From a virus: DNA of 64,000 nucleotides. Below are positions 14,902 through 43,238 of the stretch, one piece after another; the first letter of the stretch is position 1, and every line of letters begins with the position of its first letter. The position numbers and the translations under genes are program-made. The notes under the pieces are model-generated. The model was not told the DNA's origin and did no database searches. It worked only from the letters and a program-made list of their open reading frames with translations. The stretch spans positions 1 through 64,000 of the IMG/VR virus record IMGVR_UViG_3300020442_000008, one strand, 5' to 3'.

Positions 14902-15056
14902 TTGAAATTTTAGCAACGTCACCAGACACTTCCTATCTATGCTTCTTTCAAGGAGACTGGATAGTATTTGGTGTTCTAGGTGGAATAATTTGGGCATTCA
15001 AAGACAACTGTAACTTTGGAGGCTCACAAGCAGATGATGATGAGCATTACTATTGA
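14898..15056 (+). CDS. Small membrane protein (52 aa, not in the ORF track)
   Basis: ATGA overlap with the upstream stop. MIEILATSPDTSYLCFFQGDWIVFGVLGGIIWAFKDNC... has one hydrophobic helix. Confidence 0.5.
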   Translation: MIEILATSPDTSYLCFFQGDWIVFGVLGGIIWAFKDNCNFGGSQADDDEHYY

Positions 15057-20599: not shown

Positions 20600-20957
<358 letters not shown>

Positions 20958-27489: not shown

Positions 27490-28179
27490 ATGACACATTC
27501 AGTAATAATGATTTCGTTTTTAGGGAATTATCCAAATTGTGCAAAAAATAGAGATAAAAAATTTAAAAGAGCAGTAGATTCTTTTATTTGCAATACCTAC
27601 CAAGACAAAGAATTAATCATTGTTAGCGATGGCTGCGAACAAACAAACTTTATTTATGAAAATTTCTATATTAAATATAAAGATATTCAGTTGATTAAAG
27701 CGCCAAAACAGAGCAAGGGCTACCCAGGAGTTTTGAGAACAGTTGGGTTATTTTTTGCCAAAGGCGAAACTATTTCTTATTTAGATACGGATGATTATCT
27801 TGCTCCGTCTTATATAGAAAAACTTGTATCAAACTTTAATTTTGATTGGGGTTTTTGTGATGTATACCTTCCAGATATTAAAAAAGAATTTTTAAACATA
27901 AAAGAAATAAAAGACAAATCCATCAATAAAGATTTGCAGAATTTTCGCTGGACAGAATTACCGTCAAAAGAGCAAATCTGTCGTATCGGAACGCCAAATA
28001 TTTTTCATCGAGCTAAAGCGAGAGAGAAATGTTTTTGGAAAAACTGGAACGGAATCGAAGGAGAGAGCGAAGACTGGGCTTTTATTAAGCAGTTATCAGG
28101 AGAATATGGAAAAGGTATTAAAGTTGATCCTTTAGGGTATTACATGTGTCATTTTAATCCAGCAGGGATAGACATTTAA
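27490..28179 (+). CDS. Glycosyltransferase family 2 (GT-A)
   Basis: SVIM, AVDSF...ELIIVSDG, R..GL..AKG..ISYLDTDD, EDW. Confidence 0.85.
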   Translation: MTHSVIMISFLGNYPNCAKNRDKKFKRAVDSFICNTYQDKELIIVSDGCEQTNFIYENFYIKYKDIQLIKAPKQSKGYPGVLRTVGLFFAKGETISYLDTDDYLAPSYIEKLVSNFNFDWGFCDVYLPDIKKEFLNIKEIKDKSINKDLQNFRWTELPSKEQICRIGTPNIFHRAKAREKCFWKNWNGIEGESEDWAFIKQLSGEYGKGIKVDPLGYYMCHFNPAGIDI

Positions 28180-28234
28180 TTTTTTCTTGACATATTTAGC
28201 TTTTTTTGATATTATCATACTTTATTAATTCAAT

Positions 28235-28906
28235 ATGAATACAAAAACAAAACTAACATTGGTTGCTGCCCTATTTTTAGGTGCAGTAAGTTTAAACGCC
28301 GCTGAAGAGAGTTCTTTCTCAGGCTCTGCAAGCACTAAGTATACTTCAGATTATGCTCGAAGAGGGGCTTTGGTTTCTACCGAAGCTGCTCAAGCTTCTA
28401 TTGGTTTTTCCACGGAGGTTTCGGAGTTTGATGTATATGGAGACTTTTTCACAAGTCAATCTACAGATGCTGGGGTTGATAGTGATGAATTCACCATTGG
28501 TGTAGGCACGGACCTGTTTGAAGACACGATCAACGCTTCGATTGGACTATATAATACAGATTTTTCTGGGGCGGATAACGCCTTGGAATACTTTGTTCAA
28601 GTCCAATTGAATACAGCCCTAACTCCAACAATCTCATTCTTTGATGATACCGACGAAAGTTTGCAAACTTTTGAAGGTTCTTTGTCTTATAATGTTGATA
28701 CTGATTTAGTAGACCTAAATCTAGGAGGCTTACTTGGTTCGACTGACACTCTTGCGTCAGACAATCAAACTTATACAGGCTTAACAGCAGTAGTATCTAA
28801 AGATATCTCTGAAGACTTTAATGTTTTTACAGATATTTCTTTTTCAGATGCAGAATCCCGTGATTACGAAACGGTTTGGGGAATCGGATTAAATCTAAAC
28901 TTCTAA
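28235..28906 (+). CDS. Outer-membrane beta-barrel (TorF/TIGR02001-like putative porin)
   Basis: Sec signal peptide, YTSDYARRG near the N-terminus, alternating beta strands, C-terminal GLNLNF. Promoter TTGACA(28187)-17-TATTAT. Confidence 0.7.
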   Translation: MNTKTKLTLVAALFLGAVSLNAAEESSFSGSASTKYTSDYARRGALVSTEAAQASIGFSTEVSEFDVYGDFFTSQSTDAGVDSDEFTIGVGTDLFEDTINASIGLYNTDFSGADNALEYFVQVQLNTALTPTISFFDDTDESLQTFEGSLSYNVDTDLVDLNLGGLLGSTDTLASDNQTYTGLTAVVSKDISEDFNVFTDISFSDAESRDYETVWGIGLNLNF

Positions 28907-28910
28907 TATT

Positions 28911-29153
28911 ATGAATAACGTAGTAGAAACAGTAAGAAACGCCGTAGGAGGCATCTTTAGCGTATTACTTTCGATTGTTGGGCTTCTTGTCCTCTCTCAA
29001 GTAGTATTCGGAGAATCCGTCGGTATGAATGTGATCTCCAACCTACAAGCCATTGTTAATGGTTTTGTTGGAGAAGGAGCAAGTTTAGCGGGGCTAATTA
29101 CCTTGTTACTTGTCGTGGCGCTGCTTCAAAAGCAGGGCAAAAACTCAGAATAA
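28911..29153 (+). CDS. Small two-helix membrane protein
   Basis: Two hydrophobic segments, co-transcribed with the porin. Confidence 0.7.
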   Translation: MNNVVETVRNAVGGIFSVLLSIVGLLVLSQVVFGESVGMNVISNLQAIVNGFVGEGASLAGLITLLLVVALLQKQGKNSE

Positions 29154-29177
29154 TAAGGGTTATTGTTTTGAGTAATT

Positions 29178-29215
29178 AAAGAGAGCGGGGGTTTATCCCT
29201 GCTCTCTTTTTTTTT
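29178..29215 (+). terminator. Rho-independent terminator
   Basis: AAAGAGAGCGGGG...CCCTGCTCTC followed by T9. Confidence 0.85.
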
Positions 29216-29230
29216 GTGTAATTACCTATT

Positions 29231-30130
29231 GTGAATTCTTTGGTTCCAGTTCACCTCCATATACCTAAAAATGCGGGGACTTATGTTCAAGATGTATTCA
29301 ACAGATACTTTATCCGCATTCTGGAGAGGGAAAAGAAAAAAGAAGCTTTTTGTGTACAAAAAATTAGCGTAGAAAGCCCGCTTTTTAATTTGACTTTAAC
29401 TGTAGAGTTTTTAACAGATTACTGGAAGAACGATGAAAATATGAAGGCGCATCCGGTTGCAGTAATGAGGGGTAAAAATAACCGAAGGGCTAAATCTTGC
29501 GGTATAGAAACATTTAAAACATATCTGAGAAACAAACAGTTAAGGCTTTTGGCTGTAGTTATTGAGCCTGTAGGAAATCAAGATGTAAGATCGGGTTTAT
29601 TTCAGGCTTATGAATTACTTGATATTTGCGGAAAAACGCCGTTGAATTTTTTAATTCTAAGGGATGCATTTTCAAGACAGCAATCGTTATATTACTACCT
29701 TACTGGAGAAGAATCCTCACATGAACCAACACACGGATCAATTAAGCAAGAAAGTTTTTTAGATTACATTAAATCTGAAAAAGTAGAAGATAGTTGGCTA
29801 ATTCGGGTTATCTCTGGAATGCCTGCAGAAGAATCCATTAGTAAAGGCTGGTTCAACTTAGCGGCAAGATTTCTTGATTTTCATAATTTTGAAATTAAAT
29901 CTATCGAGAATACAGATATATTAATAAATCAAGTTTTATTGAATTGTTTTAATAGAAAAGTTTCCGATTCGGATAGAGAACGAGCACTTAAGAACGTTTC
30001 TAGCAAATCTGCCAAAATAACAATAGATGATCTAGACGAAGAAACAAAACAAAAATTCTTAAATCGTACTCAGTGGGATAGAAAACTATGGGAGAGGTAT
30101 TGTCAAAATGCTAATATCACACAAACATAA
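29231..30130 (+). CDS. Sulfotransferase-family protein
   Basis: 5'-PSB HLHIPKNAGT, 3'-PB ILRDAFSRQQSLYYY, C-terminal D..LW. Confidence 0.75.
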   Translation: MNSLVPVHLHIPKNAGTYVQDVFNRYFIRILEREKKKEAFCVQKISVESPLFNLTLTVEFLTDYWKNDENMKAHPVAVMRGKNNRRAKSCGIETFKTYLRNKQLRLLAVVIEPVGNQDVRSGLFQAYELLDICGKTPLNFLILRDAFSRQQSLYYYLTGEESSHEPTHGSIKQESFLDYIKSEKVEDSWLIRVISGMPAEESISKGWFNLAARFLDFHNFEIKSIENTDILINQVLLNCFNRKVSDSDRERALKNVSSKSAKITIDDLDEETKQKFLNRTQWDRKLWERYCQNANITQT

Positions 30131-30758
30131 ATTTATTACAATTGATATTCCAAAAACTGGCACAAGATCGCTCCGCCAGAGCTTGATTCCGTTAAAAGTT
30201 ATCAACATTTGTGGGGAGCCAAATTTAAATGCGGAATTTTATCAACATGATAATGCAATTCGCGTCAGAAAGCAATTCAAAAAAAATAACTGGAATTGGA
30301 ATGATTATTTTAAGTTTACGATTGTGCGTAACCCATGGGCTCGTTATTTTAGTTTTTTTAAATATTTTAAAAGTTACGGTGAGAAATATTTATGTCTAGA
30401 CGAATCAATAAATTGGGGTAAGCCTGAAATTAACCAAGGGAAACATTGCGCTGAATTATTCAAGAACAGAGATGACCACGCTGTATTAAGAAAAATTATA
30501 TTAAATAACAACTCACAAGATTCATATTATTCCGATGACAAGGGAAGGGTCATAGTTAATCATGTAGCGAGTTTTGAAAATCTTGAGGATGAGTTTGTGT
30601 TTTTATGTAATCAAGTTGGTATGAGCTCGCCTGGATTGCAACACGGAAACAAAAGTTCTAGCTTACTCAAGATGACAGATATTTATGACCAAGAATTAAT
30701 TGATCTTGTTGCCAAAAAAGAAAGCCGTGTAATAGAATTAAAAGGTTATACTATATAA
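30108..30758 (+). CDS. Sulfotransferase family 2 protein
   Basis: MLISHKHKFI.IDIPKTGTRS, FTIVRNPWAR..S.F.Y, FENLEDEF. Confidence 0.88.
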   Translation: MLISHKHKFITIDIPKTGTRSLRQSLIPLKVINICGEPNLNAEFYQHDNAIRVRKQFKKNNWNWNDYFKFTIVRNPWARYFSFFKYFKSYGEKYLCLDESINWGKPEINQGKHCAELFKNRDDHAVLRKIILNNNSQDSYYSDDKGRVIVNHVASFENLEDEFVFLCNQVGMSSPGLQHGNKSSSLLKMTDIYDQELIDLVAKKESRVIELKGYTI

Positions 30759-30773
30759 AAATTATTTACTTAA

Positions 30774-31352
30774 ATGATATTGTCGCATAAATATAAATTT
30801 GTTTGCCTAAATCCGCCAAAAACTGGATCAGGATTTAGAGAAAATACGCTGAAACAATATGCTGATTTAAGCATTATTTCTGAAAAATCTTTAAACCTAA
30901 GACACTGGAATTCATCAGAAGCCTCAAATTACATCAAAAGCATAAATAAAAACCCAAATGATTATTATTGGTTTACTTTTGTTAGAAATCCGTGGGAGCG
31001 AATGATTTCTTGGGTTAATATGAAGAAAAATAAATTCTTAGATAACGGGGTCTCAGTAGATATTGATATTGAAGATTTTATTTCGCGCACATTAAAACAG
31101 AATAGTTTTAAAAATTATATATATCGTGATGGACAATTATTAGATTTTGTCGGTTCGCTTGAAAACATCACGGAAGATCTTCGTTTTATTTTAAATAAAT
31201 TAAATATTGATGCAGATATTGGCTTTAGAGAAGACAAGTATATCAAAAACTTCAAGGAAGAAATTAGAAGCCAGCTAAGCCAGAAGACGATTGATCTTAT
31301 TTTGTGTGCAGAAAAAGAAGTTATAGACATGAAGAATTACTCGTTTAAATAA
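30774..31352 (+). CDS. Sulfotransferase family 2 protein
   Basis: MILSHKYKFV...PKTGS, FTFVRNPWERMISW, DFVGSLENI. Confidence 0.85.
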   Translation: MILSHKYKFVCLNPPKTGSGFRENTLKQYADLSIISEKSLNLRHWNSSEASNYIKSINKNPNDYYWFTFVRNPWERMISWVNMKKNKFLDNGVSVDIDIEDFISRTLKQNSFKNYIYRDGQLLDFVGSLENITEDLRFILNKLNIDADIGFREDKYIKNFKEEIRSQLSQKTIDLILCAEKEVIDMKNYSFK

Positions 31353-31360
31353 TATTCGAT

Positions 31361-32071
31361 ATGAAAATATATACTTACTATCAAGATATCAATTTTTCCA
31401 GTCAACGAGAATTAATTAATTTATGGAAAATTAGTTGGTCTCGACATGGCTACGAACCTATCGTGCTTAATCTGGAAGATGCAAAAAAGCATCCGTATTT
31501 TGAAACTTTGAACTTAGAAATGCGTAGAATATTTAAAGAAATAACAAATAAAGAAATTAATGACTACGGAATGAGTTGTTGGTTTCGCTGGTTAGCGTAC
31601 GCAACTCAAAAAGAAGAAGTTTTTTATGTTTCCGATTATGATGCAATAAATATTAATTTTCCAATTACAGAGCCGAGAGATAAACTTCATTTAATGGATA
31701 ACTGGGTTCCATTTTTAGCAAGCGGAACGCCCGATCAATTTGAAAATTTATGCAAAGCATTTGTTAATGTCAGTAATGAACGCATCGACAGTTTAAAGAA
31801 ACAGGCAACACACTATCATGATCAAGAGTTTTTTAATTATAATTTCATGCCAAAGAACAATAGTACGGCAGGAGAACTGAGAAAGAAATATAATATTTTA
31901 ATGACGAGAGACAGAACAAGATTCGGGGGAGCCAACATCAACTCAAACGTTTTAGTGCATCATGTATCGCATAACATGGTCAAGGTTACGCTTCAAACAA
32001 AATCTCCTAACAAAAAATATAGTGAAAGAGAGAGAATTATAATTGTCCGTGATTTATTAAAATTGGGGTAA
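31361..32071 (+). CDS. Putative glycosyltransferase-like protein
   Basis: LWKISW...GYEP.VL, CWFRWLA, SDYD (DxD), HDQE. Confidence 0.45.
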   Translation: MKIYTYYQDINFSSQRELINLWKISWSRHGYEPIVLNLEDAKKHPYFETLNLEMRRIFKEITNKEINDYGMSCWFRWLAYATQKEEVFYVSDYDAININFPITEPRDKLHLMDNWVPFLASGTPDQFENLCKAFVNVSNERIDSLKKQATHYHDQEFFNYNFMPKNNSTAGELRKKYNILMTRDRTRFGGANINSNVLVHHVSHNMVKVTLQTKSPNKKYSERERIIIVRDLLKLG

Positions 32072-32146
32072 TAGACATGAGCGCAGTTTTTTAACAAATA
32101 AACAAAAGAAAATTGATTAATTATTAAAATCACCACATAATATAAT

Positions 32147-32374
32147 GTGGACGAAGATTTAGAATTTATCAGCCCTAGGGATTACGACGAACAAACTGAT
32201 GCATTTAGATTTGAGTTAGATAATTTAGTAGAAAGATTCTTAGAAGAATTTGATTTAAACACTATTACATTGGTTGGAGCATTAACAGAAAAAACAAAAG
32301 AGTTGCTTGAAGTAGGGAGTATTGAATTCGAAATGGACGAAGATTTTTTTGACGAAGAGGAGGATGAACTTTGA
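32147..32374 (+). CDS. Hypothetical acidic protein
   Basis: 75-aa highly acidic ORF. Confidence 0.6.
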   Translation: MDEDLEFISPRDYDEQTDAFRFELDNLVERFLEEFDLNTITLVGALTEKTKELLEVGSIEFEMDEDFFDEEEDEL

Positions 32375-32559
32375 GGCCATGGAGGGACTGTAATTCTTTA
32401 GGTAAACTTTTGATTATATGCTGCTTGATTAATATGTTTTTTTGTATCGAACTCGCTATTATAGGTCACCCCTTAGCGATTTTTAGTGTTTTTTCAGCAG
32501 CCTGTTGCGGGTTAGGAACTTATTCTCGCAAGGCAACAAAAGATGTGTAACATATATTT

Positions 32560-32793
32560 ATGAAGATTGATTTAATTGATTTAATTTTTCTTGCAATTGG
32601 AGCTTGGGTAGTATATTATATCTATTCCTTACAAAATGCAAATAACGAACTTCAATCTATTATTGACTCTCAAAATACAGTTCTTGAATCTCAAAGAATT
32701 TATATACATGAAGTCAACAAAATGCTGGGAATCAACCCCTACTTATATCAAGAGTATTCTCAACCAAAAAAGCAGAATTTCGGACCGATCTAA
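32560..32793 (+). CDS. Small membrane-anchored coiled-coil protein
   Basis: N-terminal TM helix, preceded by GTGTA-N10-ATG. Confidence 0.6.
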   Translation: MKIDLIDLIFLAIGAWVVYYIYSLQNANNELQSIIDSQNTVLESQRIYIHEVNKMLGINPYLYQEYSQPKKQNFGPI

Positions 32794-33243
32794 ATGACAC
32801 TTCAAGAATTACTAAAATCAACGAGATATAAACCTGTCTTTAATAAGGTTTACAAACATTATCTATCAGAATCATATACTGTTAGCAAAATTGAAAACAT
32901 GGACACTGGATTTTTGCGAGCTTTTGATGAACTAAGAGAGATGACCCCAGAAACCCATGAAGACAAAGATGTAAGCCATTCCACGATTTACATAAAAGAG
33001 GTTCATCAAGATCAAGAAGCCTATATTGATGTATGCTTAAGAAATGAAGATGGAGACGAATACTTCTCATTGGATTTTTTACCTTGGAAATCCTTATTGC
33101 AACTTAATATTGATTCAAATATTAAATTAAATAAAGAAGAGATGATGGCCCATATTTTATGGGAGCTTACCTTTTGGGGGTTTTCTTCTGCAAGCGTAGA
33201 TGCACAAGGAAAAAAATTAATAGATATTGCCGAGGAAGATTAA
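32794..33243 (+). CDS. DUF6557-like hypothetical protein
   Basis: SLDFLPW..LL...AHILWELTFWGF motif. Confidence 0.5.
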   Translation: MTLQELLKSTRYKPVFNKVYKHYLSESYTVSKIENMDTGFLRAFDELREMTPETHEDKDVSHSTIYIKEVHQDQEAYIDVCLRNEDGDEYFSLDFLPWKSLLQLNIDSNIKLNKEEMMAHILWELTFWGFSSASVDAQGKKLIDIAEED

Positions 33244-33855
33244 ATGCCGTACTCTCAAGCAGGACAGGATATTTTTGTTAATCATTTATTTAAAGATTCA
33301 AATAGATTTTTTTTAGATTTTGGCTGCGGGGATGGCATAAACAAACCATGCGGAAACAATACTATGTTTCTAGAGCAAATGGGTTGGAATGGAATCTCTA
33401 TTGACATAAACCCCGATTATATAAATAGATTTAATCAGACGAGAAAAACAAAAGCGTATTGTATTGACTTAACAAAAGTAGATATCGTTAAAACAATGGA
33501 AGAGATTGGTTGCCCAAAATCTATAGATTACTTTTCATTTGATATCGATGATGCAACCTTGCAAGTTTTAAATAATTTCCCTTTTGATTATTTTGAGTTT
33601 AAGTTTATCACCTTTGAGCACGATTTATATAGAGGACAGTATGCTTTAAAGGCGTTTTCCAACAAACTTTTTGAAGATCAAGGCTATAGATTACTATTTG
33701 AAAATGTTTCCTTTTCTGGAGTAAGAGATAACCAATTAGTGGCAGTAGAAGATTGGTACATTAATCCAAAGTTTTTTGATTACCCGTGTATTAAAAAAGG
33801 AGCGGACTCAAGATCTTTGATATATGAGTACGAAAAATTTAAAAATTCAATATGA
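33244..33855 (+). CDS. FkbM-like SAM methyltransferase
   Basis: YSQAGQD, FLDFGCGDG...NNT..LE..GW.GISID, IDYFSFDID, ITFEHD, EDWY. Confidence 0.8.
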   Translation: MPYSQAGQDIFVNHLFKDSNRFFLDFGCGDGINKPCGNNTMFLEQMGWNGISIDINPDYINRFNQTRKTKAYCIDLTKVDIVKTMEEIGCPKSIDYFSFDIDDATLQVLNNFPFDYFEFKFITFEHDLYRGQYALKAFSNKLFEDQGYRLLFENVSFSGVRDNQLVAVEDWYINPKFFDYPCIKKGADSRSLIYEYEKFKNSI

Positions 33856-34901
33856 AAAAAATAATTATCACAGGAGTAACAGGTCAAGATGGAAGTCATA
33901 TGGCAGACTATTTACTGAAAAATACAAACCATAAGATATATGGAGCAGTAAGAAGACTTAGCGTTAAAAATCATGAGAATATTTTACATTTAGAAAACGA
34001 ACCTAGGTTTAATTTAATTGATATGGATTTAAATGACGCGCACAGCATAAGGGATGTTGTTCTGGACATAAAGCCTGACTATTTTATTAATTTTGCAGCG
34101 CAATCTTTTGTTGCAGGAAGTTGGAAGTACCCGATTCAAACATGGGATACAGATGCAAACGCTGTTCTACATATATTAGAATCTATTCGTAGATTTTCTC
34201 CGCATTGTAGATTTTATAATGCGGGCTCCTCAGAAGAATTTGGAGATGTAGCATATTCACCTCAAGACGAAAAGCATCCCTTATTACCTCAATCTCCTTA
34301 CGGGGCAGCAAAATGCGCCGCTAGACATATTGTAAGGGTTTATAAAGAGTCTTATGGCTTATACGCCGTCCAGGGTTGGCTTTTTAACCATGAAGGAGTG
34401 AGGAGAGGGCTCGACTTCGTCACAAGGAAAATTTCGGATGCTGTAGCAAAAATTAAATTTTCGATTGTAAATAATTTAGAACTACCTTGTTTTGAATTAG
34501 GCAATCTAGAAGCTCAAAGAGACTGGAGCGATGCAGAGGATTTTATGGAGGGGGTTTGGTTAATGATGAATCAAGATCGTCCATTTAATTATGTACTCGC
34601 AAGTGGTGAGATGCATACGATTAGGGAGTTTGTGGATGAGTGCTTTAAGTGTGCAGGGATCGATGGTTCTTGGAAATTTCAAAATGGTTCAAATAAACCA
34701 GAGGATGAAGTTTTTATGAAAGATACTGGAGAAATTTTACTTAAAATCAATCCTAAATTTTATAGACCAGCAGAAGTGCATGAATTATGTGGAGACCCAA
34801 GATTGGCAGAATCTGAATTACATTGGAAGAGGAAGACCGACTTTAAAGGTCTGGTTCAAAAAATGTATGAACATGATGAGCGGAAACACTTTAATAAATG
34901 A
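33852..34901 (+). CDS. gmd: GDP-mannose 4,6-dehydratase
   Basis: ITGVTGQDGS, AAQSFV, SSEEFG, PQSPYGAAK, FNHE, LGNLEAQRDW, RPAEV. Confidence 0.95.
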   Translation: MKKIIITGVTGQDGSHMADYLLKNTNHKIYGAVRRLSVKNHENILHLENEPRFNLIDMDLNDAHSIRDVVLDIKPDYFINFAAQSFVAGSWKYPIQTWDTDANAVLHILESIRRFSPHCRFYNAGSSEEFGDVAYSPQDEKHPLLPQSPYGAAKCAARHIVRVYKESYGLYAVQGWLFNHEGVRRGLDFVTRKISDAVAKIKFSIVNNLELPCFELGNLEAQRDWSDAEDFMEGVWLMMNQDRPFNYVLASGEMHTIREFVDECFKCAGIDGSWKFQNGSNKPEDEVFMKDTGEILLKINPKFYRPAEVHELCGDPRLAESELHWKRKTDFKGLVQKMYEHDERKHFNK

Positions 34902-35832
34902 GAGAATTTTCATTGCAGGACACAAAGGTATGGTTGGTTCTGCACTCTGGAGGCGTTTAAAAGATTACGATGTTATTACGCTAGATAAATCTAAATTAGA
35001 TTTAATTAATCAACAGTCTGTTGAGGAGTTTTTTGCAGAGTATAAGCCAACTATGGTGGTGAATTGCGCAGCAAAAGTCGGAGGAATCCTAGCAAATAAT
35101 TCCTTCAAAGGTGAATTCATTTTTAATAATTTACAAATTTCAGCAAACATCATCAACCAATCGCACAAACATGGGGTAAAGAAATTAATTAACCTAGGAT
35201 CATCTTGTATATATCCCAAGCAGTGCGAAATCCCCATAGTTGAAGAGTCTCTCTTAAGTGGAAAGCTAGAACCCACAAACGAACCGTATGCAATAGCTAA
35301 AATAGCAGCATTAAAAACCTGTGAGAGTTATTTTTATCAATATGGAAGCAACTTCTACTCATTAATGCCTTGTAATCTTTATGGTTTTGGAGATAATTTT
35401 GACCTAGAGACATCTCATGTTTTACCAGCGTTAATGAGAAAGATAGACCACGCAAAGCGCAATAATATAAATTGTGTTGAGATCTGGGGTTCGGGAAAAC
35501 CCTTGAGGGAATTCTTATTTGTAGACGATTTAGCGGAGGCGATTGAATTTTGCTTAATTAATATTGATGCGGAAAATATCTATTCCCAAGGGGTGTCACA
35601 TTTAAATTGTGGCTCAGAAGAAGAGGTTTCAATTATGGAATTGGTTTATTTAATATCTGATGTTATTGGATATAAGGGAGATTTTTCTTTCGATTCCTCA
35701 AAACCAGACGGGACTTTTAGAAAAAAAATGGATAACTCTAGGATGACTGACTCTGGATTCACAGCCAGAACAAAACTAAAAGATGGACTAAAGATGACAT
35801 ACAAGTGGTTCAAAGAATTAAATTTATCTTGA
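34873..35832 (+). CDS. fcl: GDP-L-fucose synthase
   Basis: AGHKGMVGSA, AAKVGGI.AN, LGSSCIYP, LEPTNEPYAIAK, PCNLYG, SHVLPAL, WGSGKPLREFL, KPDGT. Confidence 0.95.
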   Translation: MMSGNTLINERIFIAGHKGMVGSALWRRLKDYDVITLDKSKLDLINQQSVEEFFAEYKPTMVVNCAAKVGGILANNSFKGEFIFNNLQISANIINQSHKHGVKKLINLGSSCIYPKQCEIPIVEESLLSGKLEPTNEPYAIAKIAALKTCESYFYQYGSNFYSLMPCNLYGFGDNFDLETSHVLPALMRKIDHAKRNNINCVEIWGSGKPLREFLFVDDLAEAIEFCLINIDAENIYSQGVSHLNCGSEEEVSIMELVYLISDVIGYKGDFSFDSSKPDGTFRKKMDNSRMTDSGFTARTKLKDGLKMTYKWFKELNLS

Positions 35833-35863
35833 CAAAATTGAGTTTTTAGTTCATATTAATACT

Positions 35864-36031
35864 ATGAACGAAAGACAAAAGCGTTATCTTAAAACGAAGA
35901 AAGGGCAGGAAGCTCAGAAAAAAGCTCAGAAAAAGTATGACGAAAATAATCTCGAAAAAAGACGAGAACAAAAACGTGAGTACATGAGAAGAAAAAGAGC
36001 AGAAGACCCTAATTACTGCAAATGGAAATAA
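35864..36031 (+). CDS. Small highly basic protein (55 aa, not in the ORF track)
   Basis: MNERQKRYLKTKKG...EYMRRKRAEDPNYCKWK directly after TTGACA(35829)-17-CATATT-6-ATG. Confidence 0.6.
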   Translation: MNERQKRYLKTKKGQEAQKKAQKKYDENNLEKRREQKREYMRRKRAEDPNYCKWK

Positions 36032-36033
36032 TC

Positions 36034-36516
36034 ATGAAATATATTATTATATTTATATTGTTCTCTGCTTGCGTGGGGTTTGCATTTGAAGAGTCAATGC
36101 CAACTTATGATATGTATTCTCAAGATGTCAGAGACGAATACAGTCAATATCTAAGAGAGCAAGAACATTTAGTGCTACTATCGATGTTGGATAGTTTTAC
36201 AGATAAAGGTTTTTCCTATGTTGTCATCCACGATTCCGTAGAAACAGAGTATCCAAGCTGGAGGTATTCGGAATGGCTTGGTTATTTTTATCAATCAAAT
36301 TCGATTTGGGTCTTTCACCCAAAACTGCAATGGGTTTATCCATATGCAACCCATAATGGATTTTGGCTATGGGTAGAATCTATCGGCTGGATTTGGACGA
36401 ATAAAGATTGCTACCCGTTTTTTTGCAGGGAAAATGGAGAGAAGCTATACTTATATGACACAGAAGGGAGTGCGATCTTTTACTGCTACAGTTCGCAGGA
36501 TTTAATAAAATTGTAG
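36034..36516 (+). CDS. Secreted protein with Trp-rich repeat domain
   Basis: Signal peptide MKYIIIFILFSACVGFA, then WRYSEWLGYFY..SIWVFHPKLQWVY..FWLW..IGWIWT..YPFF. Confidence 0.65.
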   Translation: MKYIIIFILFSACVGFAFEESMPTYDMYSQDVRDEYSQYLREQEHLVLLSMLDSFTDKGFSYVVIHDSVETEYPSWRYSEWLGYFYQSNSIWVFHPKLQWVYPYATHNGFWLWVESIGWIWTNKDCYPFFCRENGEKLYLYDTEGSAIFYCYSSQDLIKL

Positions 36517-36553
36517 TTTTTTAATACTAATGTGTAATATATTTGCACAGATT

Positions 36554-38824
36554 ATGAAAATATTACTACTGACCTTACTATCTTTTAGCACCTGTTTTGC
36601 AGGCGAGCTTTACTTTAATAACGGAAAAAATCTTAAAGCGGATATACTTGAAGCCAACTCGACTCATGCCTTAATAGAGAGGTGGGAAGATGGGCAACTT
36701 TTTAGAATTAAAATCAATTCATTAACAAAAGATAATCAGGCTTATATTAAAAATAATTTCCCTCCGAGCCACGAAGCTCTTCCAAAATTCAAAAAACCTC
36801 TATCAAGTGACCAATTAAACAGGCACTCGGCTTTTATAGATAGATTAATAGAAACAAAACTAAGATCATATAACCAAAGGCCAAATAAGGATATCAATGA
36901 TGAGATTTTTGTAAGAAGGGCTTACTTAAAAATAATCGGAAGAACACCTTCATTGAAAGAATTTGATAATTTTATTAACAACAGAGATTCAAATAAAAGA
37001 GCTAAATTAATTGACGAGCTATTGGGTAGTGAGGGTTATGTCAGTAATTGGTTTAACTTTTGGGCAGATATATTACGGATTAAAGACAGGCTAAATAATA
37101 GAATATCTGGAATACCTTATAAAAATTATGTTAAGCAATTCATATCAGATAACCGACCCTATGATGTTTGGGTTAGGGAAATGCTATCTTCCTCCGGACC
37201 GCTCTGGGTAGAAGGCAACGAGGGTGTTAGTTATTTTGCTAGGGATGTAAATATGCCTTTGGACAATATGGCAAATACTGTTAGAATTTTTCTAGGGACA
37301 AGCTTGGAGTGCGCTCAGTGCCACGATCACCCTTTTGATCGCTGGACTCAAAAACAGTTTTATGAAATGGCGGCTTTTACAAGCGGTTCAACCAATTTAA
37401 GATTAAAACGGGAGAGCAACTTAAATGAATTAAATAAATTAGTGAGAGAAGAAAGGAGAAAGCTGGAGCAGGCTGAAGAACCACAGAAGTCGCGTCAATT
37501 ACAAAATGCAGTAAGAGATATTGAAGACATCCTAGGTACAGGACTAACAAGTCTTGGAAATGGTAAAATTAATTTACCTAAAGATTATCAATACGATAAT
37601 GCAAAACCAAACGAATCTTTGACTGGAAAAACTATTTTCGGAAAGGAGATAGATATAAAAACATATGCTCCCGAAGCAGGCTCTAGAGAAACATACGCTA
37701 ATTGGCTTGCCTCGGACTCAAACCCTAGGTTTACTGCCGTGATTGTCAATAGGCTTTGGAAGGAAGTTTTTGGCTTGGCGCTGATTGAGCCATTGGATAA
37801 TATGTTTGATGACACATTAGCCACAGACCCTACTTTACAACTGCATTTAGAAAAGGTAATGGTTGCATTGGATTATGACTTGAAAGAATTCTTAAGAGTC
37901 TTATATAACACAAAAACTTTTCAAAGAGAAGCTGTCGCAAGGGATGTCATACCAAAAGATAATAAAGACACGCAAATGCCTGTAGATGTACAATGGATAA
38001 TAGCTGGACCAAATATCGAAAAACAATCCCAAAATGCAGTACCTTACTTTTATCAAGGGCCAATGCTCGAAAGAATGAGCGGGGAACAGATTTGGGACTC
38101 TCTTGTGAATTTAACATTCAGTAATATTGACTCTCGCAAATTAGAACAAAACACAAAAGGTTATGAAAATTTTAGAAATTTTTCAGAAATGAGCGGGGAA
38201 GATTTATTTAATCAAGTTATGGCAAAGATTAATAAAACAGAAAAACCAAATAATCCAAATAAGACAAAGTTTTCTAAACCGATTAATACAGATTGCCCCA
38301 TAAAGCCAGGGAGAGCGATTGACCCAACCCTTCTTGCCCTCAATGAGAACGGAGAAACAGTTGCTTTTTGCTGTGAATCTTGCGTGGACAAATATAAATC
38401 CCAACAAGACGCAAAAAAACAAGAATACCGAAAGAACTTCGTAAAAGATCGTAACTCTGTAAGAGCATCAGAACTACCTTCTCCTGCTCCTATTGGACAT
38501 CTAATTCGTGAGTTCGGCGGGTCGGATAGGGAGCAGATAGAAAATTCAGATAAAAGCGCTTCAGCAACGCAGGTTTTGAATTTAATTAATGGCTTTGTGG
38601 AAACGAGATTACTCAAGAATAAAAATTTTGAAATAATAAAAGCAATAGAATCCAAGAAGACATTAAAAGATAAAGTTGAAGTAGGTTATAAATATATACT
38701 AAGCAGAGAACCAACTTCTCAAGAATTAAGAATTTTTACGGAGAATTTGAAAAACCAAAAAGATGAATATAAAGAAATAATTTGGGCGTTAATTAACACC
38801 CATGAATTTATGTTCGTTAAGTAA
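36554..38824 (+). CDS. DUF1549 (PSCyt2)/DUF1553 (PSD1) protein with N-terminal SHD1-like domain and YHS-like insert
   Basis: Signal peptide, IFVRRAYLKIIGR.P, WADILR, RIFLG.SLECAQCHDHPFDRWTQ..FY..AAF, VNRLWK..FG..LIEP.D, C-terminal IIWALINTHEF. Confidence 0.92.
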   Translation: MKILLLTLLSFSTCFAGELYFNNGKNLKADILEANSTHALIERWEDGQLFRIKINSLTKDNQAYIKNNFPPSHEALPKFKKPLSSDQLNRHSAFIDRLIETKLRSYNQRPNKDINDEIFVRRAYLKIIGRTPSLKEFDNFINNRDSNKRAKLIDELLGSEGYVSNWFNFWADILRIKDRLNNRISGIPYKNYVKQFISDNRPYDVWVREMLSSSGPLWVEGNEGVSYFARDVNMPLDNMANTVRIFLGTSLECAQCHDHPFDRWTQKQFYEMAAFTSGSTNLRLKRESNLNELNKLVREERRKLEQAEEPQKSRQLQNAVRDIEDILGTGLTSLGNGKINLPKDYQYDNAKPNESLTGKTIFGKEIDIKTYAPEAGSRETYANWLASDSNPRFTAVIVNRLWKEVFGLALIEPLDNMFDDTLATDPTLQLHLEKVMVALDYDLKEFLRVLYNTKTFQREAVARDVIPKDNKDTQMPVDVQWIIAGPNIEKQSQNAVPYFYQGPMLERMSGEQIWDSLVNLTFSNIDSRKLEQNTKGYENFRNFSEMSGEDLFNQVMAKINKTEKPNNPNKTKFSKPINTDCPIKPGRAIDPTLLALNENGETVAFCCESCVDKYKSQQDAKKQEYRKNFVKDRNSVRASELPSPAPIGHLIREFGGSDREQIENSDKSASATQVLNLINGFVETRLLKNKNFEIIKAIESKKTLKDKVEVGYKYILSREPTSQELRIFTENLKNQKDEYKEIIWALINTHEFMFVK

Positions 38825-38883
38825 AGCGCAAGAAATACACAATATATCTTGACTTTTGCATAAAATTGTGTAATAATATTACT

Positions 38884-40176
38884 ATGAAACATAGTAGTAT
38901 AGATGAACTTGGCAGAAGAGAATTCATAGCTCATGCAGCAAAAGCCTGTTTGGGCGTAGGCTTAATGCCTATGGCAGGAAATTTTATACATGACAGCGTT
39001 CAAGCCTTAACTCCAGGGGCTAGAGTACCCACGGCTCGTCATGTTATATATTTAAATATGGCTGGAGCAATGTCTCACTTAGATACTTTTGGACCGAAAC
39101 CAGATGCTCCAGATATTCAAGGTCCGACAAAATCTATAGCAACAAGCGCAGATGGAGTGATTTTATCTGAAAATTTACCCAAAACTGCACAAATAATGCA
39201 TAATGCAGCGATCATAAAAACCATGAACACAAGCCAAGGTGCGCATGAGCAAGCGAGCTACCTTATGCATACATCTTATCTTAAAAGAGGAACTATTGTT
39301 CACCCAACTTTTGGTAGCTGGGTTTCGAAACTTTCGGGTTCTCTTAATAAAACAATTCCAGCTAATGTAAAAATTGGCGGAGGTGGGGGTGGTGCAGGCT
39401 TCCTAGAATCTAAATATGGAGCTTTACCTATTAATAACCCAAAGTCTGGATTAGCAAATAGCAAAATGGCATCCTATTTAGATCAAGAGCACTTTCAAGG
39501 GAGGATATCGATAACAGAAGCTTTAAATGAAAACTTTGCAACAGATTTCCCGCAAAAACAAATTAGAGCTTATTCTGATTTATATAAAGATGCAATTAAG
39601 TTAATGAATAGTGACGATCTGAATGCTTTTGATATTACAAAAGAATCAGAAATGACATCTAGTTTGTATGGTACAACAAATTTCGGCCAAGGTTGTCTTC
39701 TTGCAAGAAGGCTTGTGGAGAATGGTGTGAGGTATGTTGAGGTCACCAGAGGCGGTTGGGATACCCATGATAATAATTTTGAGAGGGTTGCGGCTAATTG
39801 CGCAGATATAGACCAAGCATTGAGCGGTTTATTAATTGACTTAGATCGCAGGGGGCTTTTGTCGGAAACTTTAGTGGTGTTAACTTCTGAATTTGGTAGA
39901 ACTCCAAACATTAACGGCAGAGACGGAAGAGATCATTGGCCTTACTGTTTTACGGCTTTCTTAGCTGGAGGCGGGGTAAAAGGAGGAATCACTTACGGAG
40001 AAACTGATAAGACGGGAAGGTCGCCAATTGACGGGAGACCCGTTAAGCCAGCGGATCTAAATGCTACTATTGCATATGCACTAGGGTTGTCATTAAATAG
40101 CTTTCAATATTCTCCATCAGGAAGGCCATTTACGATTGCACACAAAGGAGAACCATTAACAGAGATTTTATCATAA
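38884..40176 (+). CDS. DUF1501 family Tat-exported protein (alkaline phosphatase/sulfatase-like superfamily)
   Basis: Twin-Arg GRREF, VIYLNMAGAMSHLDTF.PK, FGQGCLLARRLVE.GVR, GWDTH, SEFGRTP, GRDHW, AGGG. Confidence 0.92.
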   Translation: MKHSSIDELGRREFIAHAAKACLGVGLMPMAGNFIHDSVQALTPGARVPTARHVIYLNMAGAMSHLDTFGPKPDAPDIQGPTKSIATSADGVILSENLPKTAQIMHNAAIIKTMNTSQGAHEQASYLMHTSYLKRGTIVHPTFGSWVSKLSGSLNKTIPANVKIGGGGGGAGFLESKYGALPINNPKSGLANSKMASYLDQEHFQGRISITEALNENFATDFPQKQIRAYSDLYKDAIKLMNSDDLNAFDITKESEMTSSLYGTTNFGQGCLLARRLVENGVRYVEVTRGGWDTHDNNFERVAANCADIDQALSGLLIDLDRRGLLSETLVVLTSEFGRTPNINGRDGRDHWPYCFTAFLAGGGVKGGITYGETDKTGRSPIDGRPVKPADLNATIAYALGLSLNSFQYSPSGRPFTIAHKGEPLTEILS

Positions 40177-40826
40177 TGAAAAAAAAGGTAACCAAAATTG
40201 ACCTAACAGAGGAAATACGAGCAGCTTTGCTCGCAGAGCAAGGTTTCGAAGAAGAAATTTCCGAGGAAGCTTTTGCTGAAGAAAAAAATAAAGGAAAAAA
40301 ATTAAATAAACCCTTTAGAACCCCAGGTGGGCCAAAGAAATTTTCAGTCTATGTTAAGAATGAAAAAGGTAATGTTGTAAAAGTGAACTTCGGCGATCCA
40401 AATATGGAAATTAAAAGAGACAATCCAGAAAGAAGAAAGTCTTTTAGGGCTAGGCATAATTGCGACAACCCAGGTCCGAAGACCAAAGCAAAGTATTGGT
40501 CATGCAAAATGTGGAGCAAAAAACCTGTAAGTAAAGTTTCTAGCAGTCAAGATTTCGAAGATCAAATACTTGATATGCTCGATGAATCTGATAGCAAGCA
40601 AGGGCTTTGGGATAATATCCGAAAAAAGAAAAAAAGAGAAGGTAAGAACTATAGACCCGCGAAACCTGGGGATAAAGATAGACCTTCAAAAGAAGCATAC
40701 GAAAAAGCACAGAAACCAAAGAAAAAATCTAAAGCTTTTGAAACCTGCGACTCTTGCAAAAACCCGAAATCTTGCTCAGAAGCAGGACACTGCGAGAAGT
40801 CAAAGGCGAAAAAGAAGAAATATTAA
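40176..40826 (+). CDS. Conserved basic phage protein (modular)
   Basis: LNKPFRTPGGPKKF.VYV...V.FGD...RRKSFRARH.C...YWSC..W and GLWDNIR.K motifs familiar from aquatic phages, plus a C-terminal Cys cluster. Confidence 0.65.
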   Translation: MKKKVTKIDLTEEIRAALLAEQGFEEEISEEAFAEEKNKGKKLNKPFRTPGGPKKFSVYVKNEKGNVVKVNFGDPNMEIKRDNPERRKSFRARHNCDNPGPKTKAKYWSCKMWSKKPVSKVSSSQDFEDQILDMLDESDSKQGLWDNIRKKKKREGKNYRPAKPGDKDRPSKEAYEKAQKPKKKSKAFETCDSCKNPKSCSEAGHCEKSKAKKKKY

Positions 40827-40840
40827 GTGTAACATAGTAT

Positions 40841-41068
40841 GTGTTAAGGTATTTATTAATTCTTTTGCTATTCAGTAGTTGTTCAACAAAAGAATACTTA
40901 ACGCCAGAAATTACAGCCCTCAAGGAAGAAGATAGGGATTGGGTTCAAGTTTATCGCCATGAAATGAAAGTGGCGATGGAGCATGATGATGAAGTCGCTT
41001 GGCATTTTTTCTTTTGGGAACTTTTGAAAGAAAAGTCTCGAATTTACGAAAAATCTATTGACAAATAA
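40841..41068 (+). CDS. Small lipoprotein
   Basis: LLLFSSC lipobox, preceded by GTGTA-N9-GTG. Confidence 0.6.
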   Translation: MLRYLLILLLFSSCSTKEYLTPEITALKEEDRDWVQVYRHEMKVAMEHDDEVAWHFFFWELLKEKSRIYEKSIDK

Positions 41069-41092
41069 CACTCATTGTGGTATAGTTATTTC

Positions 41093-41995
41093 ATGTTAAC
41101 AGGCGTACTTAAAACTAGAGACGGAGAATACAAATATAGCCTAGATGTTAATGAAGATGAATTAATTAATATCTATATAAAAGAGTTAATTTTGTATTGG
41201 TGTGAAAAAAACCATCCCGATGTCGTAAGTAAAATAGAATCAAACATAAAAGAGTTAATTTTAAAAGAAAATGAAAATTAAAAAAAAATTAAAAAATGCA
41301 GAGTTTGAATACGATGAAGAAACTAAAAAGTTTTTAATAATAGATAGTGAAGATGGGAGTGCTATTGAATTAAATAAAGTATATGCATTCGCATTTATGC
41401 GGTTCGTGATTCGCATGGCACAAAGAAATTGGCTTAAAACCAAAAAAAATGTTGACAAACATGAGCCAAATATAGTATCATTAATAGATAATGAAGAAAT
41501 CAATCCAAACCAGACCACCATTCAATGGACTCAAGAAGTATCTACAGAACCCTGCACATCCAATGAGTCAGTTTAAAGCATTTATGTTAAATATAAATTC
41601 ATTCAATTTGGTACACGCCTCAGAAGTAGAAGAGTTTTTTTATGAAAAAAATGATGAAGCTGTAGAGGAAGGTGAAGTCGTAGGTATAGAAATAGAGAAT
41701 GAAGACACAGTAGATATTGTTTTGTTTTCGGATATTTATTTTAGCCAACAAAATTTTTAGTAAAATGGAAAGACTTTGGGAATATAGGATCAAATATAAT
41801 CCCGGGGCTGGACACTCCGTCACAGACAGTTATCACTATTATAACGCAGAGAGTGCTTGTGTTGCTTTGAAATATCATGAATACATGATGGAAAGACATG
41901 GATTTAGAGCACAGATTCTTTCCGTAGAAAGAAAGTGCCCTTACGCAAATAAGTGGATCGATGAGACAGATTTACTGAAAGAAAATAGCGAATGA
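41093..41995 (+). other. Cluster of four short hypothetical ORFs (41093..41281, 41271..41576, ~41563..41760, 41765..41995)
   Basis: Overlapping ORFs downstream of TTGACA(41058)-17-TATAGT-6-ATG. Confidence 0.55.
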
Positions 41996-42615
41996 GTTTT
42001 GACCAAATAATAAAAAATCAATCCTTCAAGGGAGACCCAAATAAGCACAAAGGAAAAATAGATGATAATGCTTTAGGCTTTGCTTGGAGACCTAATCAAA
42101 AAAAACGCTCATTGCTAATCAAAAACTGCCAAATAAATGCTAATGGCGTTGCAGAGGGGTTAAAGCTTTCATATATGCACGATGTACTAGTGCAAGATTG
42201 CGAAATAATAGGCGGGTATGAAGATTGCGTAGATATAGTAAGAGGAGGCAACATAACTTTCGAGAATTGTATTTTTATTTCTAATGGAACAAAACATCAC
42301 TTTACCATTAAATGTCAGGTTGAAAATGTCAAAATTGTGAATTGTATTTTTCGAAATAATTTTAATAAAATATGGGATGGAGCATTCGTTGATATGGGTA
42401 ATTGGTCAGATTATGATATAAAAGACCTTCCAAAAACGAAAGGAATTGAAATAATTAATTGCACTTTTGAAAATGTGTCTTGGTGGAAAAAAATCCTAAC
42501 TAGAAGGCTTTACGCAGAGAACGCTATCGTAAAAAATACATCAGGGTTTAATCTAAAAATACCAAATATATTTATTAATTTATTCTGGAACCATCAAAGG
42601 TATTTAAATAAATGA
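41992..42615 (+). CDS. Right-handed parallel beta-helix (pectate lyase-like) protein
   Basis: Repeating I.NC.I/F units, [16 protein letters not shown]. Confidence 0.7.
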
Positions 42616-43238
42616 ACCTTAAACAAGAACTAAAGAAAGCTAGAAGCGGAGAGTCCAACTTAATAGAGTTTACGGCAGACCCCAAACTATTAGTCCCTTA
42701 CTCAAGAATTAGAGTCACGGAAGATCCATCGTACCCTGGTGCTTTTCCAAAAATTCATAGGAGTCCGTATTCAAATAATAAACTATTAATAGGCAAATAT
42801 GTTTCTATTGCAGAGGGTGTACAATTTTTGATAGGCTCAAACCATGATTGGGAGAGGGTTACGACATATTTGAGCTTTTGCATTGAAAGCGGTATGTTAG
42901 ATGAAGGGTCTATGACTTCATCTGGAAATATTATAATAGGAAATGATGTCTTAATAGGAACAAATGCGGTTATTATGGATGGAGTATCTATTGGTGATGG
43001 GGCGGTTATAGGTGCGTGTGCGGTTGTAACTAAGGATGTTGACCCTTATACTATTGTAGGGGGAGTACCCGCAAAATTTATTAAAAAAAGATTTAATGAA
43101 GAAATAATTAAAAAATTATTAAAACTGCAATGGTGGAACATTGAGGAAGAAATATTAAATGAATTTTCAGATTTATTATTCTCAAGAGATATTAACTCAT
43201 TTATAGCAAATATAGAAAACCTTTTATCGCCACCTTAG
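42612..43238 (+). CDS. CatB/Vat-like hexapeptide O-acetyltransferase
   Basis: [63 protein letters not shown]. Confidence 0.88.

Follow-up and report, generated by a model that had tools for sequence, protein, structure and literature searches.

Virus record IMGVR_UViG_3300020442_000008 of IMG/VR, of which we analysed positions 1 to 64,000 (the window, 64,000 nucleotides), carries side by side two genes for exported proteins that belong to a module of the Planctomycetota-Verrucomicrobiota-Chlamydiota (PVC) bacteria: a DUF1549/DUF1553 gene (Pfam PSCyt2 and PSD1) and a DUF1501 gene. These are real, intact phage genes under strong purifying selection and not chimeric host DNA. The pair is very probably a functional auxiliary gene set of host origin. 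The best explanation that we can offer for the whole, to which we give slightly less than an even chance, is an auxiliary module captured more than once from one chromosomal locus of the Opitutales and acting as described below. What is new is the phage copy of the pair, the PVC bacterial module itself being already known (PMC3542564 and PMC5615132). The features of the pair are as follows.

36530-38824, + strand: DUF1549(PSCyt2)/DUF1553(PSD1) open reading frame (ORF), 764 aa, with a Sec-type signal peptide; probable start ATG 36554 (MKILLL).
37310-37324, + strand: CAQCH motif (CxxCH, then D-H) in PSCyt2, residues 261-265.
38294-38383, + strand: TRASH-like Cys module (CPIKPGR...FCCESC) inserted in the PSD1 region, with weak Pfam scores.
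38866-40176, + strand: DUF1501 ORF, 436 aa from the mechanical TTG start; probable start ATG 38884 (MKHSS).
38914-38919, + strand: twin-arginine (Tat) codons, in GRREFI.
36531-36539, + strand: the second TGTGTAATA site, 5′ of the DUF1549/DUF1553 start.
38849-38877, + strand: promoter-like site TTGACT-17-AATAAT with TG, agreeing at 10/12 positions and containing TGTGTAATA at 38867-38875.

The original prediction, made from the letters alone, had described an intact Sec-exported DUF1549/DUF1553 gene with a CAQCH motif followed by a twin-arginine DUF1501 gene, in phage DNA, with phage-like AT-rich codons and phage-type upstream motifs. All of this held. The first protein matched both PSCyt2/DUF1549 (PF07583, E 2.3e-42, 145.7 bits against a Pfam cut-off of 29.8) and PSD1/DUF1553 (PF07587, E 1.2e-25, 90.8 bits against 28.5), and its C261, C264, H265 and H267 are invariant in 51/51 aligned homologues. 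The second matched DUF1501 (PF07394) over the entire profile (E 2.1e-110, 370 bits against a cut-off of 27; residues 57-435 to profile positions 1-390 of 390), and its R17 and R18 are invariant in 44/44 homologues. No PHROG or NCBIfam family was found for either protein. Because relatives start at MK..., the probable true starts are ATG 36554 and ATG 38884; the mechanical first start codons lie earlier.

Among the 44 DUF1501 sequences 37 columns are invariant, and every one is kept in the window protein. They include R17, R18, T74, H127, W298-F305, R345, R355 and H357; the polar ones include T74, H127, D299, H301, D302, N303, N304, D316, R345, R355 and H357. From this conservation, T74, H127, D299, H301, D302, R355 and H357, together with the near-invariant D356, are candidate nucleophile or metal ligands.

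The DUF1501 protein models as an alkaline-phosphatase-superfamily core. With the AlphaFold2 (AF2) model (predicted local distance difference test, pLDDT, 85.7), Foldseek returned 196 PDB matches at E<=0.001, with S1 sulfatases in the lead (E 5e-8 to 1e-5). VIA-align of residues 54-436 gave Z 18.3-20.7 to chains of nucleotide pyrophosphatases/phosphodiesterases (NPP), PafA and sulfatases. ENPP6 scored highest (Z 20.7; root-mean-square deviation, rmsd, 3.0; 244 residues aligned), ahead of PafA (Z 19.9) and S1 sulfatases (Z about 19), although the scores of these three kinds of enzyme are effectively tied. The model has a helical insert at about residues 165-247. Pfam gave a weak Phosphodiest match below its cut-off (E 0.0057) and no Sulfatase match at E<=0.01, and a sequence search of the PDB found no match. 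The formylglycine motif [CS]x[PA]xR is absent from the window protein, with chance matches in only 10/44 homologues.

The AF2 model of the DUF1549/DUF1553 protein (pLDDT 84.5; predicted template-modelling score, pTM, 0.85) consists of a small SHD1-like beta domain at the N-terminus (residues 22-78; Z 8.5, rmsd 1.7, 56 aligned) and a large, mainly helical body. A Foldseek search of the PDB found nothing at E<=0.001, a null result that, with a model of 764 residues, does not demonstrate a new fold. For the body, Foldseek and VIA-align found nothing above helical-bundle noise except a weak phycobilisome-linker-like stretch; there was no cytochrome fold match either, a weak test given the size of the model. 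By sequence the PDB gave a chance-level match only (E 0.053). The TRASH-like module scores below the Pfam cut-offs (TRASH_HVO_1752_C E 0.0016, zf-FCS E 0.0017). In a 15-sequence alignment it occurs once in the six rows of the window's phage clade and as two tandem copies in four of the five Opitutales rows; it is absent from the related phage L025 and three outgroup rows.

The surroundings are unmistakably those of a phage. The virus record is 128,598 bases long with a CheckV completeness estimate of 95%. PHROG matches in the window include tail-fibre proteins, a tail-fibre assembly chaperone, rIIA, rIIB, DNA ligase and clamp loader, and the remainder of the record encodes the terminase large subunit, DNA polymerase, a UvsX-like recombinase and a DnaB-like helicase. 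T4-associated families are thus present (rIIA/rIIB, the UvsX-like recombinase, the clamp loader and T4-type tail-fibre families). The Pfam models for T4 capsid, portal and tube (Gp23, Portal_T4 and Phage_T4_gp19) gave no match in the 128.6-kb record and their controls were silent too; we therefore call the record a large tailed phage, not T4-like.

Of the outcomes that would have refuted the original prediction, neither lost residues nor relaxed selection was found, and a chimera of host and phage DNA was not borne out. The IMG/VR scan gave 53 pattern matches, of which 49 encode a DUF1501 relative (61-88% identity), on contigs of up to 214 kb. A DUF1549/1553 gene lies directly upstream of DUF1501 in 33 of these 49 related phage loci; the other 16 have DUF1501 with no directly upstream partner. 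Five of the DUF1501-only records were searched whole, four of them rated 100% complete, and none had a PSCyt2 match. Among 50,697 GenBank phage records, which may omit the window's own, tblastn with either protein gave no match at E<=1e-5.

The DUF1501-only phages have a tRNA-like 3′ end or nrdB ahead of the gene. The tRNA-3′-end-like sequence (...GTTCGACTC...CCACCA) stands about 15 nt before the DUF1501 start in L035-L041, L044 and L072, the tRNA-like sequence in these loci being about 30-70 nt 5′ of the gene. Similar sequence stands 5′ of the L015 DUF1549/1553 gene and of the L040 DUF1501 gene. Such tRNA-like 3′ ends are possible insertion hot spots. In the DUF1501-only phage L023 two ORFs come before the gene, both judged by eye from their translations: a secreted protein of 217 aa (9209-9862), which has a signal peptide and may be an outer-membrane beta-barrel, and a 132-aa ORF (8769-9167) resembling a small heat-shock protein.

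Runs of three other marine studies yielded assembled contigs that span three of the gene junctions here. The junction of the tryptophan-rich gene that precedes the pair (the Trp-rich gene) with DUF1549 is spanned by 36336-37537, that of DUF1549 with DUF1501 by 37958-39301, and that of DUF1501 with the lysine-rich gene downstream (the Lys-rich gene) by 39877-40613, 40095-40693 and 39587-40208. No bridge of the epimerase/Trp-rich junction (35832-36022) was among the contig pieces listed.

The GC content at third codon positions (GC3) is 0.30 and 0.28 for the two genes, within the range of eight other window genes (0.24-0.34) and under the host orthologues (median 0.39-0.40). Ratios of nonsynonymous to synonymous change (dN/dS) were estimated by the pairwise Nei-Gojobori method. 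Between phages the median was 0.030 for DUF1501 (90 usable of 1176 pairs, 1066 being saturated) and 0.070 for DUF1549/1553 (92 usable of 528, with 424 saturated); within Opitutales the values were 0.014 (6/190 pairs) and 0.053 (5/136 pairs).

The nearest cellular copies come from marine Opitutales. The cellular search covered one-genome-per-species contigs and yielded 21 marine loci (L051-L071, two from single-cell genomes), titled Opitutia, Opitutales, Puniceicoccaceae, Seribacter or Verrucomicrobiota, with 72-80% identity to the window in DUF1501 and 46-57% in DUF1549/1553. The next cellular copies are at 53% (Verrucomicrobiales) and 50% (Mariniblastus), and others at 43% or less. A 72% match titled as a Cellvibrionales metagenome-assembled genome (MAG), L072, is a contig of 210,818 bases; because it has a GC content of 0.35 and several phage genes, including one for a tail-fibre protein, it is probably a phage contig binned in a bacterial MAG, and several public MAG bins appear to hold such contigs.

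These Opitutales loci belong to cellular genomes and share synteny; in L065 the genes run multihaem cytochrome-TPR, GYF/DUF975, DUF1549/1553, DUF1501, PSCyt1 cytochrome c, RHH-PAS, IscS-like, S1 sulfatase and glyoxalase. The PSCyt1 cytochrome c gene follows DUF1501 in 20/21 host loci, starting in L065 18 bases past the stop; the IscS-like gene and the S1 sulfatase are each found in 17/21, and the multihaem-TPR gene was matched upstream in 11/21. Host loci lack the other window ORFs of at least 100 aa, save for 28-35% matches to the Trp-rich ORF (four loci) and to a sulfotransferase ORF (one locus). None of the other host-locus genes was found in 50 phage loci and the window, apart from a likeness between the C-termini of the Trp-rich ORF and a host cadherin/TSP3-repeat protein. 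Five Opitutales genomes (2.2-3.7 Mb) have 15-30 DUF1501 matches each, and what the phages carry is one specific, divergent orthologue, scoring about 355-370 Pfam bits where other host paralogues reach as much as 538.

For DUF1501 the tree comprised 80 rows, without L043 and L075, which were too short, and with nine distant PVC and other loci as the outgroup. In it the phage and Opitutales copies group in one clade (SH-aLRT 98), in which phage rows fall into at least three groups: a 30-phage clade that includes the window (98), a 10-phage clade within an Opitutales clade (100), and a nine-phage DUF1501-only group plus L040. The approximately unbiased (AU) test rejects a single phage clade (log-likelihood difference 168.2, p 3.6e-60). 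The DUF1549/1553 tree (52 rows; L054, L070, L018 and L066 omitted) has a 26-phage clade (99) and a seven-phage clade nested in an Opitutales clade (100), beside a Puniceicoccaceae MAG. The trees and the AU test therefore indicate that the pair moved between Opitutales and phages at least twice, and we infer the direction from host to phage because the host locus is chromosomally syntenic. The similarity of the genes makes marine Opitutales (Verrucomicrobiota) the probable hosts of these phages.

The two proteins likely form a heterodimer, according to structure prediction. The window's own pair was too long to co-fold, so we used the natural pair of the related phage L025 (residues 95-714 and 58-436, with an alignment for each). 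It scored 0.86 (runs 0.85-0.87) against 0.00 for the best of three controls; in a benchmark, the mark applied was reached by 58/80 solved complexes and 2/110 mismatched pairs. At least 70% of contacts recur across the runs, with a partner pLDDT of 86-87, and the score is unlikely to come from a memorised structure because a sequence search found no related solved one. In the predicted interface the C-terminal part of PSD1 (603-714, including the conserved W-x-L-x-N-x-x-E end) meets the helical insert of DUF1501 (165-247). Among 15 longer DUF1501 homologues, four have PSCyt2 in the same protein, and three of the four PSD1 as well. These rare natural fusions (P0125, P0128, P0134 and P0137) have 818-1170 aa, with PSD1 in P0125, P0128 and P0134; each was seen on a single contig, except P0134 on four.

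The upstream motifs were confirmed. TGTGTAATA occurs four times in the window against 0.69 expected, a number reached by 0/100 shuffles, and every site (20241, 27264, 36531 and 38867) is just 5′ of an ORF start. A site of the form TTGAC(A/T)-N17-(T/A)GTGTAATAAT was found 5′ of DUF1501 or DUF1549/1553 in several related phage loci, including L002, L007, L009, L019, L006, L010, L011 and L013. From this pattern, TGTGTAATA probably represents the -10 region in a class of phage promoters of sigma-70 type. Generic sigma-70-like sites are not enriched in 33000-43000 (28 against 34.8 expected), and neither the generic promoter scan nor a terminator scan rose above shuffles. Short contigs from one marine metatranscriptome run are 100% identical to 36268-36432, 39715-39918 and 40329-40953, which fall in the Trp-rich, DUF1501 and Lys-rich genes; they give a weak hint of expression, as DNA may be present in such a library.

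Around the pair lie the following features of the window.

20600-20957, + strand: full-length tmRNA, with ARAGORN tag AKNINSVEPFVSEELALAA and Rfam RF00023 at 145.7 bits against a gathering score of 47.
27490-35832 and 41992-43238: glycan-modification island, with the gene pair sitting between its two parts.
36022-36516, + strand: Trp/Tyr-rich ORF, 164 aa (8 Trp, 17 Tyr); probable start 36034 (MKYIII...).
40176-40826, + strand: Lys-rich conserved phage gene (phrog_7595, E 5.6e-14), the right-hand phage flank.
43229-43477, + strand: cluster of three tRNA genes, Thr-TGT, Leu-TAA and Arg-TCT.

The island encodes a GT2 glycosyltransferase and two proteins of the Sulfotransfer_2 family, at 30108-30758 and 30774-31352. 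It also has a methyltransferase-like ORF, a hexapeptide acyltransferase, a beta-helix protein and a GDP-mannose 4,6-dehydratase, with a second NAD-dependent epimerase/dehydratase as a possible GDP-fucose synthase. The ATG of the Lys-rich gene overlaps the TAA stop of DUF1501 (TAATG), and the gene is present in 33/49 related phage loci.

The original prediction had placed a secreted Trp-rich protein in front of the pair. The ORF exists and its N-terminus is hydrophobic and signal-like, but 0/49 related phage loci match it, and it is a neighbour outside the conserved module. It has no Pfam, PHROG or NCBIfam family and only two clusters of similar length in a collection of 5.8 billion proteins. 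Over its C-terminal 85 aa it has 33% identity (E 1.9e-7) with the C-terminus of the cadherin/TSP3-repeat protein upstream in host locus L065. The best ESM Atlas matches (0.85, 0.77 and 0.76) are under the 0.9 level and are leads only, to viral and Verrucomicrobiota hypothetical proteins.

Elsewhere in the window, a JmjC/cupin-like protein adjoins an IMPDH/GMP-reductase-family protein (15016-16942). The same phage record has a giant ORF of 3847 aa (L132 2393-13936; G000 about 83.4-94.9 kb), and an 825-aa ATP-dependent protease/chaperone-like protein was seen at L133 11715-14192 on the - strand (phrog_4871, E 7e-231).

The roles that the original prediction offered (remodelling of the periplasm, superinfection exclusion or redox) are conjectures, and what was found here points to a heterodimeric enzyme of the alkaline-phosphatase superfamily. 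The course of events that we propose is this. Both genes would be transcribed, probably from the sigma-70-like promoters, and the signal sequences suggest that DUF1549/1553 would leave the cytoplasm by Sec and DUF1501 by Tat. In the host periplasm the two would form the predicted heterodimer, the conserved C-terminal end of PSD1 packing on the helical insert of DUF1501. Catalysis would fall to DUF1501, which its fold and conserved residues suggest to be a metal-dependent member of the alkaline-phosphatase superfamily. During infection the complex would supplement or replace the orthologous enzyme of the host, hydrolysing a phospho- or sulfo-ester in dissolved or envelope-derived organic matter and so feeding phage replication, with phosphorus as the most probable nutrient. 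An ester hydrolase for nutrient supply is possible on the evidence of the models, although we would lean a little against it.

Several points weigh against this proposal. The hydrolase and nutrient step is our reading of the fold alone, and a literature search found no substrate, metal or activity for any DUF1501 protein. The match of the active site to those of canonical enzymes is not clean: a partial profile alignment to one sulfatase, with a probability of 10.6%, sets the D-N-G metal-ligand position of the sulfatase against E-F-G of DUF1501. The co-folded L025 proteins are 72% and about 51% identical to the window's, and the DUF1501 interface is no better conserved than the rest (window against host L059, 30/47 at the interface and 252/332 elsewhere). 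The hosts are assigned from gene similarity only. Finally, a redox link is argued for by PSCyt1 in 20/21 and multihaem-TPR in 11/21 host loci together with the invariant CxxCH, and a simple hydrolase leaves it unexplained.

That redox link is the basis of another reading, which we consider improbable: the pair would be a periplasmic electron-transfer system, in which DUF1549/1553 binds haem c through CxxCH and couples DUF1501 to cytochromes or the respiratory chain. By analogy to a Sox-type hydrolase, the phage would then boost the energy metabolism of its host and not its nutrient supply. Electron transport has already been proposed for the module (Kamneva et al. 2012, PMC3542564). CxxCH and the further His are invariant in 51/51 sequences, Tat export suits a cofactor loaded in the cytoplasm, and in the host loci PSCyt1 follows DUF1501 and multihaem-TPR was matched upstream. 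In the 50 phage loci and the window, however, neither cytochrome gene is found (0), the CxxCH partner is not next to DUF1501 in 16/49 phage loci (PSCyt2 in 0/5 whole records), and haem binding by PSCyt2 is not demonstrated in the literature searched. The strong fold match of DUF1501 speaks against it as well: the alkaline-phosphatase superfamily, to our knowledge, has hydrolases, transferases and mutases and no oxidoreductases.

The glycan island on both sides of the pair would suit an enzyme that strips sulfate or phosphate from glycans of the host envelope, for superinfection exclusion, receptor masking or virion release. The pair has the GT2 glycosyltransferase and both Sulfotransfer_2 genes among its phage neighbours, with the GDP-mannose 4,6-dehydratase, the second epimerase/dehydratase, the beta-helix protein and the hexapeptide acyltransferase in the same region; S1 sulfatases are among the top structural matches, and PSCyt genes of PVC genomes often adjoin sulfatases and bear carbohydrate-binding modules (PMC5615132). 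This neighbourhood is not a conserved one, however. The sulfotransferase ORF at 30774-31352, the beta-helix ORF and the acyltransferase ORF are each found in 0/49 related loci (30108-30758 was not queried), and DUF1501 of other phages adjoins tRNA or nrdB genes. Furthermore, the host orthologue is a conserved chromosomal gene outside any glycan locus, with cytochromes and an IscS-like gene nearby, and DUF1501 has no formylglycine motif. An envelope role is thus, in our estimate, quite unlikely. The pair could be suspected, from its place in a variable region with neighbours that vary among phages, to be a host fragment of recent capture that does nothing for the phage, but this is very improbable: dN/dS is low in phages even though synonymous sites are mostly saturated (1066/1176 and 424/528 pairs), GC3 has moved to that of the phage, the genes persist among phage copies with just 61-88% identity, and the AU test points to repeated capture of one orthologue among 15-30 paralogues. 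We give next to no chance to host DNA joined to the phage by mis-assembly or mis-binning. Some public MAG bins do mix (L072), but nothing of the kind was found for this region, where there are 49 independent viral contigs with the gene in phage context, three junctions bridged by contigs of three other studies, a DUF1501 stop that overlaps the start of a conserved phage gene, and phage-like composition.

Few unexplained families of Planctomycetota and Verrucomicrobiota are as expanded as DUF1501 and PSCyt/PSD1, whose function has been in question since at least 2012 (PMC3542564). Repeated capture and a dN/dS of about 0.03 single out one paralogue, and a minimal unit of two genes, for biochemistry; phages keep what pays. 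The predicted interface between the PSD1 C-terminal end and the DUF1501 helical insert is a testable pairing model for the whole family. The DUF1501 gene may also serve as a host marker that ties marine phage contigs of 130-214 kb to Opitutales, for which very few phages are known to us. One paper (PMC4642752) presents phage P8625 in its title as the first lytic phage of Verrucomicrobia. In its boldest form, which we regard as doubtful, our proposal is of a new class of two-subunit, Tat-exported periplasmic esterases, one orthologue of which has repeatedly been taken by Opitutales phages for mining dissolved organic phosphorus (or sulfur) during infection. If it were true, the phage versions would show the minimal unit, a catalytic subunit and a PSCyt2/PSD1 partner held by the PSD1 C-terminal end, with no PSCyt1, and these phages would be the first large-genome lineage assigned to marine Verrucomicrobiota.

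Our literature search found no description of a phage copy of DUF1501 or of the DUF1549/DUF1553 pair, supplementary gene lists not being covered. A structural relative is present in BFVD: UniProt A0A6J5M742, a 'DUF1501 domain-containing protein' of 489 aa from an uncultured Caudovirales phage (Foldseek E 4e-11; 15% identity to the window's DUF1501), which, like every other relative, gave no match at E<=1e-5 in the 50,697 GenBank phage records.

DUF1501/PSCyt/PSD1 modules are known in Planctomycetota, Verrucomicrobiota and Lentisphaerota as expanded and functionally unresolved (Kamneva et al. 2012, PMC3542564), as the original prediction had stated; the 15-30 DUF1501 matches per host genome agree. 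Compared with these modules, the window has the same three Pfam families in the same adjacency, a twin-arginine DUF1501, and a partner with a signal peptide and CxxCH. Unlike them, it is on a phage, is AT-rich, has no PSCyt1 domain or gene, and has a partner with an SHD1-like N-terminal domain and a TRASH-like insert. The Opitutales locus is closer, with DUF1549/1553 followed by DUF1501 and both the SHD1-like domain and the TRASH-like module in common. It differs in adding PSCyt1 (20/21), IscS-like and S1 sulfatase genes (17/21 each) and in part the multihaem-TPR gene, and in having two TRASH-like modules in four of five aligned host partners where the window's has one.

At the level of fold, DUF1501 is like the S1 sulfatases (1p49, 6fny), which were on top in Foldseek and reached Z about 19 in VIA-align, but it lacks their [CS]x[PA]xR motif and Pfam Sulfatase match. 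It shares its core equally with NPP and PafA (5ege, 2gsn, 5tj3; Z 19.7-20.7, rmsd 3.0-4.2, 244-269 residues aligned). NPP phosphodiesterases and PafA phosphatases use a Thr nucleophile, for which the invariant Thr74 of DUF1501 is a candidate counterpart. DUF1501 differs from them in sequence (11-16% identical) and in its helical insert (about 165-247), the predicted partner interface. Cyanophages carry pstS and phoA as periplasmic auxiliary genes for nutrient uptake. Like these, the window pair encodes exported, host-derived proteins that could raise the nutrient supply; unlike them, it is of unrelated families, belongs to phages of another host phylum, and is predicted to work as two subunits.

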